Virus record (IMG/VR): IMGVR_UViG_2703719347_000006
Span: 1 to 42,800 of that record
Direction: 5' to 3' (one strand)
DNA length: 42,800 nucleotides
From: a virus
Taxonomy: Duplodnaviria > Heunggongvirae > Uroviricota > Caudoviricetes
This document shows, piece after piece, positions 7,212 to 35,570 of the stretch (position 1 is its first letter; each line of letters begins with the position of its first letter). Under the pieces are notes generated by a model that saw only the letters and a program-made list of their open reading frames with translations, was not told the DNA's origin and ran no database searches. A program made the position numbers and the translations under genes.

Positions 7212-7835
7212 CTATGCGGCCTCGGAAGGAAGTCCAATCATCTTATTCAAATCTTCTACCCGTAAAGCAGGAAGTGCTGTACTTGCTTTATCTGCTTCTT
7301 CTGGTAGCAATTCTTTGCTTTCAGGCCAAACTTCAATAAGTCGCTTAACTGTTGTGACTGAGTTCAAAGCAGCCCATACATTTGATTCGATATCCTTTTT
7401 CTTGGCTTCAAGTTTTTGTTGCAATGCGCAGATTTCATCAAACCTTTTTGTTATTTCGTGTTCTGCGCTAAACATGCATTTATCTTTGGTCGGAGTAGGG
7501 AGCAATATATCTTCGCCGTTGCCGTCTTTCCCATATGAATGCCATCCAACCCTTCTGCCAGATACAGTCAGATAAATTGAAGTAGAACTAACATCGTATG
7601 AGTAAAATGAACATCCCATCTTTTCAAGTTCTTCACTTATAGCTACCAACTTGGATGATAACTGATCCACTTCCTCAGTTTTCTTTTTACCGCCAAACGC
7701 AATAACTCTGGCGTCAAGTGCAAGCTGGTTCTTTAACTTTGTTACTTCTTTAAGTTCAGTGAAAACCCCAGACTTAATTAAAGCGTTACGAGCGATTTCC
7801 TCTTTCATTCTCGTAGTTAAGCGGATTGATGACAT
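7212..7835 (-). CDS. Hypothetical early-left protein (207 aa)
   Basis: ATG at 7835 with GAGGA RBS, 11 nt after the N stop; the track's TTG start at 7895 would overlap N and is rejected. Confidence 0.5.
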   Translation of the reverse strand: MSSIRLTTRMKEEIARNALIKSGVFTELKEVTKLKNQLALDARVIAFGGKKKTEEVDQLSSKLVAISEELEKMGCSFYSYDVSSTSIYLTVSGRRVGWHSYGKDGNGEDILLPTPTKDKCMFSAEHEITKRFDEICALQQKLEAKKKDIESNVWAALNSVTTVKRLIEVWPESKELLPEEADKASTALPALRVEDLNKMIGLPSEAA

Positions 7836-7846
7836 ATTAATTCCTC

Positions 7847-8173
7847 TCAAATAAGTGGTTTGCTGCCTAATTTCATTTTCTGGCGACCAACACAAGTCAC
7901 ACCCATTTCACTGCGTGGCTTGCTGTACCATGTGCGCTGATTCTTGCGCTCAATACGTTGCAGGTTGCTTTCAATCTGTTCGTGGTATTCAGCCAGCACC
8001 GTAAGGTCTATCGGATTCAGTGCGCTTTCTACTCGTGATTTCGGTTTGCGATTCAGCGAGAGAATAGGGCGGTTAACTGGTTTTGCGCTTACCCCAACCA
8101 ACAGGGGATTTGCTGCTTTCCATTGAGCCTGTTTCTCTGCGCGACGTTCGCGGCGGCGTGTTTGTGCATCCAT
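7847..8173 (-). CDS. N: Antitermination protein N
   Basis: 108-aa ORF beginning MDAQTRRRERRAEKQAQWKAANPLL (arginine-rich motif); matches lambda N as recalled; preceded by nutL. Confidence 0.9.
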   Translation of the reverse strand: MDAQTRRRERRAEKQAQWKAANPLLVGVSAKPVNRPILSLNRKPKSRVESALNPIDLTVLAEYHEQIESNLQRIERKNQRTWYSKPRSEMGVTCVGRQKMKLGSKPLI

Positions 8174-8371
8174 CTGGATTCTCCTGTCAGTTAGCTTTGG
8201 TGATTGGATGGCCGGCGCTGAACCCCGGCTTACTGGTTAGAGCGCCCGCACTACCAGTGACGCTGTCTTGAGGCGCAGATTGGTTACTGCTTGCCATGAG
8301 CGCTGTTTATACATTGGTCGAGCATCAGCCTGCTCATTCATCCAATCCCAAAGCCTTCTGCTTTGAATGCT

Positions 8372-8401
8372 GCCCTTCTTCAGGGCTAAATTTTTAAGAG
8401 C
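8372..8401 (-). promoter_or_regulatory. nutL (boxB hairpin plus boxA) in the N leader
   Basis: Plus-strand gcccttcttcagggc (8372-8386) is the reverse complement of boxB GCCCTGAAGAAGGGC; adjacent ttaagagc (8394-8401) gives boxA GCTCTTAA on the transcript. Confidence 0.7.
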
Positions 8402-8442
8402 CTCACCTTCAATTGTGGTCAGTGCGTCCTGCTGATGACTAA

Positions 8443-8471
8443 ATAGTACGATTTGTACTTTATCGAGTCAA
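8443..8471 (-). promoter_or_regulatory. Putative pL promoter with overlapping operator
   Basis: Minus strand: -35 TTGACT (8471-8466), 17-nt spacer, -10 TACTAT (8448-8443); dyad AGTACGATTTGTACT (8445-8459) overlaps spacer and -10. Confidence 0.45.
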
Positions 8472-8534
8472 TACAAAATGTTCTAAATATAATTAGTTTT
8501 TTATAACGCTTTGTATTTAATGGGTTTATATTTT

Positions 8535-8567
8535 GGAAAAAGAAAACCCGGCGCTGAGGCCGGGTTT
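8535..8567 (-). terminator. Rho-independent terminator after the cI-linked 348-aa gene
   Basis: Stem cccggc (8547-8552) / gccggg (8559-8564) with 6-nt loop; on the minus strand followed by a U-rich run; 12 nt past the ORF stop. Confidence 0.6.
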
Positions 8568-8575
8568 GGAGTGCA

Positions 8576-9622
8576 TCACTCTGGTTCGCTGGGGAATATA
8601 TTTATCAATTGCCCTGTTGAAATGTGCCCATTTTCTACAACCTCTAGGTATGAAATTTCAACAGTTGATTCTTTGGCTACAGCATTCAAAAACTCAAGAA
8701 GCTCATCAGTAGATGTTATGTCGGCTGAGGTCTTTATGGTGAAAGATTCACCATTTGAAACCCTTATGACGTCAATATTTATGTCCTGATTTGTTTCTCC
8801 CGAGCGACGAACGCCCGTGACATAAAAGTTATCTCTTCTAGTTTCCTTTTTTCGATCAATTGATTGTCTTTGGTTTAAGGTATTCAACTGTTCTCTATTT
8901 ACCACTCTCTGACCAATTGTTACCCTCTCAACTGACGAGTCTTGAGCAAGCTTTTTAAGCAACTTGCTTTTACCATCCTCGCCGTGAGCCAGAACCTCTC
9001 TGCTAATGTTTGTTTGACCGCTAATCAACAACTTGAGCACATTGTCTTGTGCTTCGTTTACCGCTTTGGTGCTTTTTTCCACCAATTGCACCTGAGAATC
9101 TTGGTTATGTCGCTGTGTTTCGTAGTACTCATTGATCCACTTATAGCCTACCGTGCTGGCAGCTAAGACGATAGCGGCGACGGCGCATAGTGCTTGCCTT
9201 CCTGTCATTTTGCCTATCGCTTGAGTAAACACTGTCACCACTCCGTTTACAATCGGATCTGAGTCACCATCCGCTTGGCTTGAGCCTTCGCTTATTCGGT
9301 AGACAATATCCAGCAAACCTTTCTCTGCATCTTTTAGCTTCTGCCGATTATGAGTGCTGTGACTGACTACCGTAAATGCTTTTTGTATTTCATGCGTAAG
9401 CTCTGCCATACCAAAAAGCATTGACGCAGTCAATGAAGAATTATATCTATTTGGATCGCCTTTTACATTAATATTGATCTTTGGCCATCCACTGAAAACT
9501 ACGTTAGGGAATGTGAAGTCGCTTGAGTCGATGTCCTTCCTTCCGAGCATTTCTGTTACAAAAGATACAAAGTCGTCTTCTGACTTGATAACATATTGCG
9601 CAGGTTGATCAATCGCTGACAT
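8576..9622 (-). CDS. Membrane protein of unknown function in the rexAB position (candidate lysogen-expressed exclusion protein)
   Basis: 348-aa ORF; ATG 25 nt after the cI stop with AAGGA RBS; one predicted TM segment ALCAVAAIVLAASTVGYKWI followed by a coiled-coil-like stretch; AT-rich by eye; terminator immediately downstream. Confidence 0.7.
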   Translation of the reverse strand: MSAIDQPAQYVIKSEDDFVSFVTEMLGRKDIDSSDFTFPNVVFSGWPKININVKGDPNRYNSSLTASMLFGMAELTHEIQKAFTVVSHSTHNRQKLKDAEKGLLDIVYRISEGSSQADGDSDPIVNGVVTVFTQAIGKMTGRQALCAVAAIVLAASTVGYKWINEYYETQRHNQDSQVQLVEKSTKAVNEAQDNVLKLLISGQTNISREVLAHGEDGKSKLLKKLAQDSSVERVTIGQRVVNREQLNTLNQRQSIDRKKETRRDNFYVTGVRRSGETNQDINIDVIRVSNGESFTIKTSADITSTDELLEFLNAVAKESTVEISYLEVVENGHISTGQLINIFPSEPE

Positions 9623-9647
9623 TCTTAATCCTTAACATCCATTCCTA

Positions 9648-10307
9648 TCACCCAAACGTCTCTTCTGGCCACTGGCTGGCGATAACTTTCCCTACAACGG
9701 AACAGCTATCATTGCATGGGATCATTGGATATTGCGGGTTTAGTGGTTGTAGGAACACCTGACCGCTATCCCTGATCAGTTTCTTGAAGGTAAACTCGTC
9801 ACCACCAAGTCTGGCTATGCAGAAATCACCTGGCTCAACAGCCTGCTCAGGGTCAACGAGAATTAACATCCCGTCAGGAAAGCTTGGCTTGGATCCTGTT
9901 GGTGCGGTCATGGAATTACCTTCAACTTCAAGCCAGAACGCACAATCACTGGCTTTTTTGGTTGTGCTGACCCATCTCTCCGCATCACCTTTCGTAAAGG
10001 TTCTAAGCTCAGGCGAGAACATCCCGGCCTGAACATGAGAAAAAACAGGGTACTCATATTGTTTTTTAACGGGGGCAGATGAGTATTCGCCAACAGGTGA
10101 AAATGTACCGTCGTGGTTGAATGAGACGTTATCAATACCAAGGTATTTAAACACCACACCAATCTCGTCAAGAGATGGATGACGAGATCCGCGCAACCAG
10201 TGACCAATTCCACCCTGCGTCATACCAAGCTCTTCAGCTAACTTCTCTTGAGTTATGCCGAGCTCTTTCATTCTGGATCTAGCCAGTTCATACCATTTCA
10301 TTTTCAT
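9648..10307 (-). CDS. cI: cI-type prophage repressor (HTH N-terminal domain, LexA-like S24 C-terminal domain)
   Basis: C-terminal half [21 protein letters not shown]...[15 protein letters not shown]...FTFKKL matches lambda cI as recalled; N-terminal HTH differs; start at 10307 or 10301 preferred because the track start 10370 falls inside the pR -35. Confidence 0.85.
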
Positions 10308-10316
10308 ACCCTTATT

Positions 10317-10331
10317 ATTACGCTCTGTACT
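10317..10331. promoter_or_regulatory. Putative operator site (oR, cI-proximal)
   Basis: ATTACGCTCTGTACT shares the 13-mer TACG-N5-GTACT with sites at 8447-8459 and 10377-10389. Confidence 0.45.
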
Positions 10332-10364
10332 AAAACCATCCACGCACAAGATGTATTTTTTTGT

Positions 10365-10393
10365 TTGCATTCTAAAAGTACATATCGTATTAT
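10365..10393 (+). promoter_or_regulatory. Putative pR promoter with embedded operator
   Basis: -35 TTGCAT (10365-10370), 17-nt spacer, -10 TATTAT (10388-10393); operator-like 13-mer at 10377-10389 lies in the spacer. Confidence 0.5.
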
Positions 10394-10419
10394 TGTTTCA
10401 TGGTTACTATGGAGGGCAT

Positions 10420-10635
10420 ATGAGCAACCTACGAAAATATCGAGAGTCACTGAATATCTCTCAAACAACACTTGCTAAGGCAGTTGGATGCACACAGGGA
10501 GCTATCGGACATTGGGAATCTGGTCGTCGCTTCCCAGACCTTAAAACATGCCGTGCTCTTGTTGAGTGCCTAAACAAGTTAGGCGCAAAAGTCAGTCTTG
10601 ATGACGTGTTCCCGCCGGAACACAAAGCCGCTTAA
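10420..10635 (+). CDS. cro: Cro-like HTH regulator
   Basis: 71-aa ORF from ATG 10420 with GGAGGG RBS; XRE-type HTH ISQTTLAKAVGCTQGAIGHWESG; divergent from cI. Confidence 0.75.
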   Translation: MSNLRKYRESLNISQTTLAKAVGCTQGAIGHWESGRRFPDLKTCRALVECLNKLGAKVSLDDVFPPEHKAA

Positions 10636-10643
10636 GACATTCC

Positions 10644-10675
10644 CGCTCTTACACATCCCAGCCCTGAAAAAGGGC
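10644..10675 (+). promoter_or_regulatory. nutR (boxA CGCTCTTA plus boxB hairpin)
   Basis: cgctctta at 10644-10651 and gccctgaaaaagggc at 10661-10675, matching lambda nutR as recalled. Confidence 0.75.
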
Positions 10676-10754
10676 ATCAAATTAAACCACACCTATGGTG
10701 TATGCATTTATTTGCATACATTCAATCAATTGTTATCTAAGGAAATACTTACAT

Positions 10755-11033
10755 ATGCAACTTACAAGTACTCGCAAGAAAGCGAATGCAATTACAAGCA
10801 ACATCCTGAATCGAATTGCTGTACGTGGTCAGCGAAAGGTTGCCGACGCGTTAGGGATTAATGAATCGCAAATTTCGCGATGGAAAGACAGCTTTATCCC
10901 AAAGATGGCCATGCTTCTGGCTGTGCTGGAGTGGGGTGTTGAAGACGAGGAATTAGCGGAGCTGGCAAAGAAAGTAGCCATGGTGCTGACAAAAGAAAAG
11001 CCTCAAGACTGCGGCAACAGTTTTGAGGCCTGA
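10755..11033 (+). CDS. cII: cII-like transcriptional activator
   Basis: 92-aa ORF from ATG 10755 with AAGGAAA RBS; motif ESQISRWKDSFIPKMAMLLAVLEWGV resembles lambda cII. Confidence 0.75.
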   Translation: MQLTSTRKKANAITSNILNRIAVRGQRKVADALGINESQISRWKDSFIPKMAMLLAVLEWGVEDEELAELAKKVAMVLTKEKPQDCGNSFEA

Positions 11034-15587: not shown

Positions 15588-16236
15588 TGGCAGCAAATAC
15601 CGAAATATTTGGGTAGTTGGCGATCTGCACGGATGCTACACGAACCTGATGAAAAAACTGGAGACGATAGGATTCGACACCAAAAAAGACCTGCTTATCT
15701 CGGTTGGCGATTTGGTCGATCGCGGTACAGAGAACGTCGAATGTCTGGAATTAATCACATTCCCCTGGTTCAGAGCTGTACGTGGAAACCATGAGCAAAT
15801 GATGATTGATGGCTTATCAGAGCGCGGAAACGTCAATCACTGGCTGTTTAATGGCGGTGGCTGGTTCTTTAATCTCGATTACGACAAAGAAATTCTGGCT
15901 AAAGCTCTTGCCCATAAAGCAGATGAACTTCCGTTAATCATCGAACTGGTGAGCGAAGGTAAAAAATATGTCATCTGCCACGCCGATTATCCTTGTGACG
16001 AATACGAATTTGGAAAGCCAGTTGATCATCAGCAGGTAATCTGGAACCGCGAACGAATCAGCAACTCACAAGACGGGATCGTGAAAGAAATCAAAGGAGC
16101 TGACACGTTCATCTTTGGTCATACGCCAGCAGTGAAACTACTCAAGTTTGCCAACCAGATGTATATCGATACCGGCGCAGTGTTCTGCGGAAACCTCACA
16201 TTGATTCAGGTACAGGGAGAAGGCGCGTGGGCATAA
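15565..16236 (+). CDS. ninI: Ser/Thr protein phosphatase (lambda PPase / NinI-like)
   Basis: Start at internal ATG 15565 (MRYYERIDG...); metallophosphatase motifs GDLHG, GDLVDRG, GNHE. Confidence 0.85.
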
Positions 16237-16745
16237 GAGAACTAAACCTCACCAAAGAGCAGCACGAGTGGCTGAATGGCTGGCTTGAACTGTGGGGCGC
16301 ATGGGTTTATTCAGGTCGTCTGGAAAAGCGCATGAGCAGCGTAATAGCGAAGTTCATGGAGAGCGTAGAGCCGGGAAGAGTTATGACAAGGCCAATGTGC
16401 AATGATGATGATGGAATGTTGATTTCTCAGGTCGTCGATTCCGTCATGTACATTGACAAGAAAGCCTTTGGCATCCTCCTCAGCTACTACGCTCATGGTT
16501 CATCTAAGCGAGCAATTGCATCCTACTATCACGCGACTGCAAAGCCACGCAAGATGTGTGGACGTGGTGGCGAGGGATGGAGAAAACCTTCACTGGCAAC
16601 CTGTAGAAACGAAATTGACGACATCCTGAAAGCGTCATTATTTGTTTTATACCAGCCAATGCAAAATGCTTTCAAAATGCGTAAACGTGTTGAGAAAGTT
16701 AAGCATGTTGCCGTTAAAAGCCTTGACATGCAATTAGCCATTTAG
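16227..16745 (+). CDS. Late-gene antiterminator Q-like protein
   Basis: 172-aa ORF (GTG start with GGAGAAGG RBS) in the Q position between nin genes and the late promoter; Cys-containing; not lambda-Q-like in sequence. Confidence 0.5.
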
Positions 16746-16808: not shown

Positions 16809-16883
16809 GGGTCAGTCGTATAAAGGTCATTACGGAAGGCTGTTAACCTTCTTATCGTGGTTCGAGTCCACGCTGTCCCGCCA
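16809..16883 (+). tRNA. tRNA-Asn (anticodon GUU), by manual cloverleaf folding
   Basis: 75 nt: acceptor gggtcag/ctgtccc (one mismatch), anticodon stem gaagg/ccttc, loop ctGTTaa, T-arm cgtgg-TTCGAGT-ccacg, discriminator g and CCA. Confidence 0.6.
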
Positions 16884-16888
16884 AATAT

Positions 16889-16964
16889 GCTGGTTTAGCT
16901 CCAATGGTAGAGCAGTCGCCTTGTAAGCGAATGGGTAGCGGTTCAAGTCCGTTAACCAGCACCA
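16889..16964 (+). tRNA. tRNA-Thr (anticodon UGU), by manual cloverleaf folding
   Basis: 76 nt: acceptor gctggtt/aaccagc, D-arm gctc/gagc with GG in loop, anticodon loop ctTGTaa, T-arm agcgg-TTCAAGT-ccgtt, discriminator a and CCA. Confidence 0.7.
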
Positions 16965-17206: not shown

Positions 17207-17530
17207 ATGAAGATGCCAGAAAAAAATGACCTGTTAGCCGCCATTCTAGCGGCAAAGGAACAAGGCATCGGGGCAATCCTTGCGTTTGCAATGGCGTACC
17301 TTCGCGGCAGATATAATGGTGGTGCGTTTACAAAAACAGTAATCGACGCAACGATGTGCGCCATTATCGCCTGGTTCATTCGTGACCTTCTCGGCTTCGC
17401 CGGACTAAGTAGCAATCTCGCTTATATAACGAGCGTGTTCATCGGCTACATCGGTACTGACTCGATTGGTTCGCTTATCAAACGCTTCGCTGCTAAAAAA
17501 GCCGGAGTAGAAGATGGTGGAAATCAATAA
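17207..17530 (+). CDS. S: Holin S (class I, dual-start MKM)
   Basis: 107-aa [25 protein letters not shown]... matching lambda S as recalled. Confidence 0.9.
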
Positions 17531-17990
17531 TCAACGTAAGGCGTTCCTCGATATGCTGGCATGGTCAGAGGGAACTGATAACGGACGTCAGAAAACCAGA
17601 AATCATGGTTATGACGTCATTGTAGGAGGAGAGCTATTCACTGATTACTCCGATCACCCTCGCAAACTTGTCACGCTAAACCCAAAACTCAAATCAACAG
17701 CAGCCGGACGTTACCAGCTTCTTTCCCGTTGGTGGGATTCCTATCGTAAGCAGCTTGGCCTGAAAGACTTCTCTCCGAAAAGCCAGGACGCTGTGGCATT
17801 GCAGCAGATTAAAGAGCGTGGCGCTTTACCGATGATTGATCGCGGTGATATTCGTCAGGCTATCGACCGTTGCAGCAATATCTGGGCTTCACTGCCGGGC
17901 GCTGGTTATGGTCAGTTCGAGCATAAGGCTGACAGCCTGATTGCAAAATTCAAAGAAGCAGGCGGAACGGTCAGAGAGATTGAGGTATGA
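17514..17990 (+). CDS. R: Endolysin R (lytic transglycosylase)
   Basis: 158-aa ORF matching lambda R as recalled. Confidence 0.9.
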
Positions 17991-35217: not shown

Positions 35218-35570
35218 TGCGATACAGACGCGAAGACGCCGATGGCGATTATACCTTTGGCAGCGGTGATGACACCTGGCTGATTAACTCACCGGAGGCC
35301 GTGGCGCAGGCGGTAAAAACGCGATTCGAATTGTGGTATGGGCAATGGTTTCTCGATACCACCGAAGGGACTCCGTGGATCCAGTCTGTGCTCGGTAAGC
35401 AGAAGCCGGAAACCTACAACCTGGCGATCCGTAAGCGCATCCTCGAAACGCGTGGCGTTAAATCAATCCTCTCTTTCAATACGACGGTGGATACCACGAC
35501 CCGACGTGTCATGTTTTCCGCTGAAATCGACACTCTTTATGGAATAACGACTGTTACATCGGAGGCGTAA
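35217..35570 (+). CDS. Baseplate wedge protein (gpW/gp25-like)
   Basis: 117-aa ORF in the canonical V-W-J-I order. Confidence 0.4.
   Translation: MRYRREDADGDYTFGSGDDTWLINSPEAVAQAVKTRFELWYGQWFLDTTEGTPWIQSVLGKQKPETYNLAIRKRILETRGVKSILSFNTTVDTTTRRVMFSAEIDTLYGITTVTSEA

Follow-up and report, generated by a model that had tools for sequence, protein, structure and literature searches.

A probable VT2-Sakai-type immunity module between lambda-type N/nut flanks in a lambdoid phage genome, with an uncharacterized gene in the rexAB slot and a predicted structured RNA in the N leader

The closest described counterparts of the phage immunity region considered here belong to lambda and to Shiga toxin (Stx)-converting phages of the VT2-Sakai type. 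The lambda repressor cI is the nearest outgroup of clade I of the Stx-phage CI proteins (PMC8951638), and PMC10742460 credits Fattah et al. 2000 with the description of a VT2-Sakai cI whose homology to lambda cI is high in the C-terminal part and low in the N-terminal part. In the annotation of the Stx1-converting phage AP005153, OL and OR have three putative operators of 17 bp each, the same six operator sequences are listed for VT2-Sakai in Table S1 of PMC10742460, and the PA4-type phages correspond to the Sakai Stx2a prophage (PMC4587872). The interval between cI and N is a recognized mosaic hotspot that holds the abortive-infection genes rexAB and bstA (PMC8585504). The stretch analyzed (the window) comprises positions 1-42,800 of the virus record IMGVR_UViG_2703719347_000006, a complete lambdoid phage genome with the immunity interval in its early region; a preliminary description had singled out positions 8372-10760 as a mosaic. 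This interval is very probably the immunity module of a complete lambdoid phage, of the type found in VT2-Sakai, Sp5 and Stx1-converting phage, set in lambda-type N/nut flanks. The immunity switch is already known, and there is no novelty in the switch itself.

Comparison of DNA blocks by blastn with lambda (NC_001416, immunity region 35.0-38.7 kb) confirmed the mosaic description, in that lambda-like blocks alternate with a non-lambda OL, cI N-terminal domain, OR and cro. The lambda-like blocks are 7872-8202 (N, 94.0% identical), 8347-8437 (nutL to the pL start, 95.6%), 8539-8566 (100% identical to a 28-bp lambda terminator segment just downstream of rexB), 9634-10058 (the C-terminal domain of cI, 93.6%) and 10642-10757 (nutR and the tR1 region to the cII ATG, 99.1%). 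A match to lambda is absent for 8438-8538 (OL), 8567-9633 (the region of an open reading frame designated ORF348) and 10059-10641 (the N-terminal domain of cI, OR and cro), and lambda homology resumes at 8437, near the transcription start of pL. Thus N, nutL, nutR, the sequence upstream of cII and the cI C-terminal domain match lambda (94-99% identical) as had been claimed, and the helix-turn-helix (HTH) N-terminal domain of cI, cro and the operators differ from it, with no blastn match for these and no alignment of Cro with lambda Cro at E <= 100.

Alignment with other lambdoid immunity regions, which the preliminary description had proposed while allowing that a match to a characterized type would leave the interval unremarkable rather than wrong, did return such a type. 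The cI-OR-cro DNA (9650-10635) is 93.3% identical to that of VT2-Sakai, AP005153, Stx2 phage II, Nil2 and the PA4-type phages, and 213 of the 219 residues of cI (97%) are identical to those of AP005153 cI, residues 1-45, which cover the HTH, being identical throughout. Judged by sequence, the repressor N-terminal domain with its recognition helix, the cognate Cro and all six operators place the module in the VT2-Sakai type (Stx-phage CI clade I), and it lacks the lambda cI N-terminal domain and lambda Cro by which the lambda immunity type (imm lambda) is recognized. No homology to the lambda operators was found in alignments of OL and OR with lambda, and the TATCACCGCCAGTGGTA operator family of imm lambda is likewise absent from them. 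Because the DNA-binding domain of the repressor, Cro and the operators are unrelated to those of lambda, a non-lambda specificity is the natural reading; the distinct specificity that had been claimed therefore holds with respect to lambda but is not a new type, since it is that of the VT2-Sakai class.

The repressor gene itself is composite, with 9648-10058 (C-terminal domain) lambda-like and 10059-10307 (N-terminal domain) of VT2-Sakai type. In protein comparisons, cI is 71% identical to lambda cI overall and identical from residue 83 to the end except for 2 substitutions; its N-terminal domain is weakly similar to that of lambda and is without the lambda N-terminal arm. The recognition-helix residues are QGGIGHWLR here versus QSGVGALFN in lambda. 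Residues E34 and D38 of lambda cI form the positive-control patch, and the residues aligned with them are E and E. The protein matches HTH_3 and the Peptidase_S24 domain (PF00717, E 9e-29), and Ala94-Gly95, Ser132 and Lys175 align with the lambda cleavage site and catalytic dyad, so that by sequence cI may be counted among the self-cleaving LexA/S24 repressors, and RecA-stimulated self-cleavage is expected from this combination of domain, cleavage site and dyad. The C-terminal domain DNA of VT2-Sakai-type cI is 92.9% identical to that of lambda, and as the junction with a lambda-like C-terminal domain is also present in VT2-Sakai, Nil2 and AP005153, the fusion is old.

The module is widespread. 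Of 5426 complete Escherichia coli genomes, 786 (about 1 in 7) carry its immunity-specific segment (10059-10641); E. coli strain 167 is 99.7% identical over the whole interval, and phage phi458 (OP434518) is 99.1% identical over 8349-10757, ORF348 included. As phi458 is a spontaneously induced prophage of avian pathogenic E. coli (PMC9701743) that carries the region, the module is in use in a live phage. The features of the region are as follows.

7847-8173, minus strand: N antiterminator gene, 108 aa, 91% identical to lambda N at the protein level (Pfam N36, E 1.5e-26)
8202-8347, minus strand: predicted structured RNA core in the N leader, recognized by fold energy and covariation, which replaces the interior of the lambda N-leader hairpin
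8372-8402, minus strand: nutL, with boxB GCCCTGAAGAAGGGC (8372-8386) and boxA GGCTCTTAA (8394-8402), by comparison with lambda
8443-8471, minus strand: predicted pL, with -35 TTGACT (8466-8471), 17-bp spacer and -10 TACTAT (8443-8448), by consensus scan
8444-8460, no strand: putative operator OL1 TAGTACGATTTGTACTT, one central-base difference from VT2-Sakai OL1; contains the previously noticed site 8447-8459; overlaps the pL -10 and spacer
8469-8485, no strand: putative operator OL2 CAATACAAAATGTTCTA, two central-base differences from VT2-Sakai OL2; overlaps the pL -35
8502-8518, no strand: putative operator OL3 TATAACGCTTTGTATTT, one difference from VT2-Sakai OL3
8544-8567, minus strand: predicted intrinsic terminator closing the cI operon, a nine-pair stem followed by a T run
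8576-9622, minus strand: ORF348, in the rexAB slot, uncharacterized, predicted to be membrane-anchored (phrog_6191, function unknown)
9648-10307, minus strand: cI repressor gene, 219 aa, starting MKMKWYEL (HTH_3 and Peptidase_S24)
10314-10342, minus strand: putative pRM read from the sequence, with -35 TGGATG (10337-10342), 17-bp spacer and -10 AATAAT (10314-10319)
10316-10332, no strand: putative operator OR3 TATTACGCTCTGTACTA, one end-base difference from VT2-Sakai OR3; contains the previously noticed site 10319-10331
10342-10358, no strand: putative operator OR2 ACGCACAAGATGTATTT, three differences from VT2-Sakai OR2; the poorest match to the consensus, missed by the preliminary description
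10376-10392, no strand: putative operator OR1 AAGTACATATCGTATTA, two differences from VT2-Sakai OR1; contains the previously noticed site 10377-10389; overlaps the pR spacer and -10
10365-10393, plus strand: predicted pR, with -35 TTGCAT (10365-10370), 17-bp spacer and -10 TATTAT (10388-10393), by consensus scan
10420-10635, plus strand: cro, 71 aa, HTH_3 type (Pfam HTH_3, E 1.4e-12), 70/71 residues identical to AP005153 Cro
10644-10675, plus strand: nutR, with boxA CGCTCTTAC (10644-10652) and boxB GCCCTGAAAAAGGGC (10661-10675), inside the block 99.1% identical to lambda
10755-11033, plus strand: cII, 92 aa (Pfam Phage_CII, E 7e-45), 55% amino acid identity to lambda cII

Three related sites had been reported to share TACG-N5-GTACT; their coordinates are correct, but the gap is not, the 13-mer being TACG-N4-GTACT (TACGNNNNGTACT), and the N5 spacing belongs to the symmetric form AGTAC-N5-GTACT. 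When TACGNNNNGTACT was counted on both strands of the 42.8-kb window with 100 shuffles as a control, exactly 3 matches were found against 0.07 expected, and none of the shuffles reached 3. These sites are OL1, OR3 and OR1, half of a six-operator set: the six 17-bp putative operators of VT2-Sakai are all present, with 1-3 differences each, mostly in central bases. The differences fall at 2 of 60 core half-site positions versus 8 of 42 other operator positions, and A5-C6 is invariant across all 12 half-sites. A degenerate 17-mer consensus with 2 mismatches has 11 matches in the window where 9.3 are expected, which is the chance level; as it is without statistical power alone, the weak operators rest on homology and position. 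The centre-to-centre spacings are 25 bp and 33 bp in OL, 26 bp from OR3 to OR2 and 34 bp from OR2 to OR1. Among relatives the OR2-OR3 distance is constant, and the OR1-OR2 distance is 32-34 bp (33 in the closest relatives, 32 in VT2-Sakai), the variation being due to a T-run indel and the 34 bp found here to an extra T: the run that separates OR2 from the pR -35 (10356-10362) consists of 7 T in the window and of 6 T in strain 167, phi458, JNQH497 and 720R6. At position 2 of OR2 (10343), strain 167 agrees with the window in having C, and the other relatives examined have T. The placement of pRM is that of the putative promoter annotated in AP005153.

The observed identities, site positions and domain content predict how the switch would work with respect to binding, promoter activity, cooperativity, cleavage and co-transcription. 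Dimers of cI would bind the six 17-bp, roughly symmetric operators through a half-site approximating T-A-g-T-A-C. OL1 and OL2 would then cover the -10 and -35 of pL, OR1 the spacer and -10 of pR, and OR3 the predicted pRM, the start of which would lie approximately at the cI ATG to give a leaderless cI mRNA, as in lambda. OR2 would abut the pRM -35, centred at approximately -43, the position used by lambda cI to activate pRM. Because the C-terminal domain is that of lambda with 2 substitutions, dimerization, pairwise and long-range OL-OR cooperativity and RecA-stimulated self-cleavage are expected as in lambda. The HTH_3-type Cro probably shares the operators of cI, N would act at boxB hairpins identical to those of lambda, and ORF348 would be co-transcribed with cI in lysogens, ahead of the lambda-identical terminator.

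Lambda-like flanks around a non-lambda core, together with OR intergenic DNA that is 81.6% identical to the VT2-Sakai subtype, might suggest a recent and unique chimera with an immunity specificity unseen before, but this is extremely improbable: the VT2-Sakai class has essentially the same HTH region and Cro and the operator cores are kept, the same C-terminal domain junction occurs in VT2-Sakai, Nil2 and AP005153, and phi458 and hundreds of E. coli genomes have near-identical regions. At the sequence level such a chimera is refuted. The specificity might instead overlap partly with that of lambda, if the repressor, or mixed oligomers formed through the common C-terminal domain, gave partial cross-immunity or interference with lambda. 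According to PMC10742460, Fattah et al. 2000 found cross-immunity between VT2-Sakai and lambda despite dissimilar immunity DNA; lambda cI has an apparent Kd of 3.7-6.4 uM on VT2-Sakai operators versus 0.2-3 uM on its own (PMC10742460), and C-terminal domains only 2 residues apart make heterodimers plausible. The operators, however, have no recognizable half-site in common with lambda TATCACCGC and the recognition-helix residues differ, micromolar binding to 37-mers is near non-specific, and heterodimers would weaken rather than extend repression, so that overlap with lambda is distinctly unlikely.

Nor is it likely, although somewhat easier to entertain, that only OL1, OR1 and OR3 are real operators and that OL2, OL3 and OR2 have been over-read from the three-plus-three layout of lambda. 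The chance frequency of the degenerate consensus, the C at half-site position 4 of OR2 and the variation of the OR1-OR2 spacing between relatives would fit such a reading, but the weak sites are conserved between two subtypes with diverged inter-operator DNA (much of the divergence of OR falls between operators), OL2 lies on the pL -35, OR2 abuts the pRM -35, and A5-C6 holds without exception. Several points do weigh against a VT2-Sakai-type switch with six operators that works as outlined above. Tight spacing is confined to the pairs OL1-OL2 (25 bp) and OR2-OR3 (26 bp). OR2 fits the consensus poorly, and because the spacing of 34 bp between OR1 and OR2 is unlike the 24 bp of lambda, the geometry of pairing may differ and cooperativity may depart from the lambda pattern. 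The promoter pRM is predicted from weak hexamers only. The operators of AP005153 are annotated as putative, no footprinting or other binding data for a native repressor of the VT2-Sakai type were found in the literature searched, and the only repressor assayed on VT2-Sakai operators was lambda cI, with micromolar apparent Kd (PMC10742460). The preferred assignment remains a six-operator module of VT2-Sakai type.

ORF348, which the preliminary description did not mention, fills 44% of the interval that it covered. The gene starts 25 nt after the cI stop codon, is preceded by an AAGGA ribosome-binding site of its own and stops immediately ahead of the terminator that follows rexB in lambda; lying between cI and this terminator, it is therefore in the rexAB slot. 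Its GC content is 42% versus 50% for the window. The product matches phrog_6191, of unknown function, and has no match in Pfam, NCBIfam or PADLOC (PADLOC at E <= 1); with RexA, RexB or the KilA-N domain of BstA it has no sequence or domain homology, and the slot alone is common. An AF2 model (pLDDT 85.7) has a C-terminal OB-like barrel, and one membrane helix is predicted, a hydrophobic helix at residues 144-163. Against PDB sequences, a profile search yielded nothing beyond weak matches to proteins with a membrane helix and a stalk (MotB, ATP synthase subunit b). The domain DUF6575 was considered and set aside as a weak lead: one of three full-length BFVD matches (E ~6e-5, uncharacterized phage proteins) is named DUF6575-containing, and 0 of 54 family members match DUF6575 in Pfam. 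Vassallo et al. 2022 include DUF6575 in their list of defence domains, and the supplements of that paper are without mention of it.

The gene is present in 18 of 5426 E. coli genomes. A word-indexed search placed its family in 56 clusters, of which all those attributed to an organism are from Enterobacterales, and a profile search returned 929 representatives (50% identity clusters) at E <= 0.001 and 573 at E <= 1e-10, mostly of 300-380 aa. Homologues occupy other accessory positions of prophages: beside the integrase at the icd site, beside tail-fibre genes and at a prophage end. In E. coli JNQH497 (L008 3216-4253 versus window 8567-9652), the flanks are 99.4% and 99.6% identical to those here and the slot holds a different protein of 345 aa, 25% identical to ORF348 over the first 160 residues. 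This is a precise cassette exchange, with the cI stop codon on one side and the terminator on the other; in P22-like phages that have this immunity type, the slot is without cargo. Because the slot, the low GC content, the cassette exchange and the prophage-only contexts agree, an exclusion or abortive-infection function expressed from the prophage is the likeliest role of ORF348, a tentative assignment that falls a little short of even confidence.

The window sequence at 8203-8346, which lies between nutL and the start codon of N, stands in place of lambda 35390-35493 by blastn; it falls just outside the coordinates of the preliminary description. On the transcript strand, the N-leader RNA of approximately 145 nt has a minimum free energy of -78.2 kcal/mol (z = -4.7). 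Over 46 distinct variants it is consistent with a structure of 41 pairs in 7 helices, 99.4% paired, and 8 compensatory pairs fall in 4 helices, versus 0-2 in slid controls. Nothing above noise was found in Rfam 15 at E <= 10 (231 nt) or E <= 1 (5 kb). Copies of the core are carried by 103 IMG/VR contigs and by 144 of 5426 E. coli genomes, with a median of one copy per genome, and also by unrelated phages such as Jilinvirus ep3 and Uetakevirus BUCT554; a second class of N-leader RNA, with a different closing stem, likewise occurs in unrelated phages (ep3, BUCT554). A repeated MITE-/RSA-like element was considered for the core and rejected, since there is a median of one copy per genome, only those 144 genomes carry it and its helices covary internally; for the same reasons of copy number and internal covariation, a structured RNA is the better reading. 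At least 5 different arginine-rich N-type antiterminator genes are closely preceded by the class whose closing stem is GATTGGATG/CATCCAATC, and this placement suggests that the N-leader RNA acts in cis on N expression. The RNase III-processed N leader of lambda has a comparable cis role.

The last ~20 codons of N are unlike lambda, and 7846-7899 is 100% identical to the Stx1-converting phage AP005153; with this 3' end and a lambda-like remainder, N is therefore itself mosaic. The boxB hairpins of nutL and nutR and the boxA of nutR are identical to those of lambda, and the nutL boxA differs from lambda CGCTCTTAA in its first base, C to G, a G that the Stx1-converting phage shares at the aligned position. 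With an N that has an arginine-rich N-terminus, and with boxA-boxB elements in the pL and pR transcripts, the region has the components of N/nut antitermination of the lambda kind. At cII, only the ATG and the leader before it are identical to lambda. The place that ral/sieB takes in lambda, immediately downstream of N, is filled by an open reading frame of ~200 aa (7212-7835, minus strand) that is without a counterpart in the stretches of lambda and phi458 used for comparison. Farther along the window, the plus strand has a pair of adjoining tRNA genes at 16809-16964, Asn(GTT) and Thr(TGT), with open reading frames at 16227-16745 and 17514-17990 on either side. No stx genes were seen in the window.

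The range of phages that a lysogen can exclude, and the set of prophages induced at the same time, both depend on the immunity type. This non-Stx phage has the repressor, Cro and operators of Sakai-type Stx2a and Stx1 phages, from which homoimmunity with these phages and a capacity for module exchange with them are expected; this is relevant to how Shiga-toxin phages spread and are induced. The slot between cI and N behaves as a cassette site, which here holds an uncharacterized gene family, and this family and the N-leader RNA merit more interest than the switch. One possible joint reading, held with less than even confidence, is that ORF348 and its slot counterpart are a new kind of single-gene exclusion or abortive-infection factor and that the N-leader RNA is a new cis-regulatory class controlling N-type antiterminators across lambdoid phages; if so, ORF348 would give a family of ~930 clusters, for which no Pfam model exists, its first member of assigned function.

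Compared with known systems, the region has the gene order of the lambda immunity region, the same three-plus-three operator logic and an apparently leaderless cI start, but differs from it in the N-terminal domain of cI, the fold of Cro, the operator sequence and the interior of the N-leader hairpin, of which the outer stem GGCUUUGG...CCAAAGC is the same, and rexA and rexB are replaced by ORF348. Like rexAB of lambda and bstA of Salmonella phage BTP1, ORF348 lies between cI and OL/N, before the same terminator; unlike them, it is a single gene with one predicted membrane helix. The replication module downstream of cII differs in phi458, which also lacks the N-leader element (no match to 8200-8348). 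VT2-Sakai (Sp5, NC_000902), AP005153, Stx2 phage II and Nil2 share the OL spacings, the OR2-OR3 distance and the lambda-like C-terminal domain of cI; with respect to this class, the module described here forms a second subtype at the DNA level, with 93% identity over its whole length and 82% within OR, with N, nutL and nutR of lambda type where the Stx phages have an HK97-like N, and with ORF348 as the cargo between cI and OL where VT2-Sakai has an open reading frame of 173 aa.

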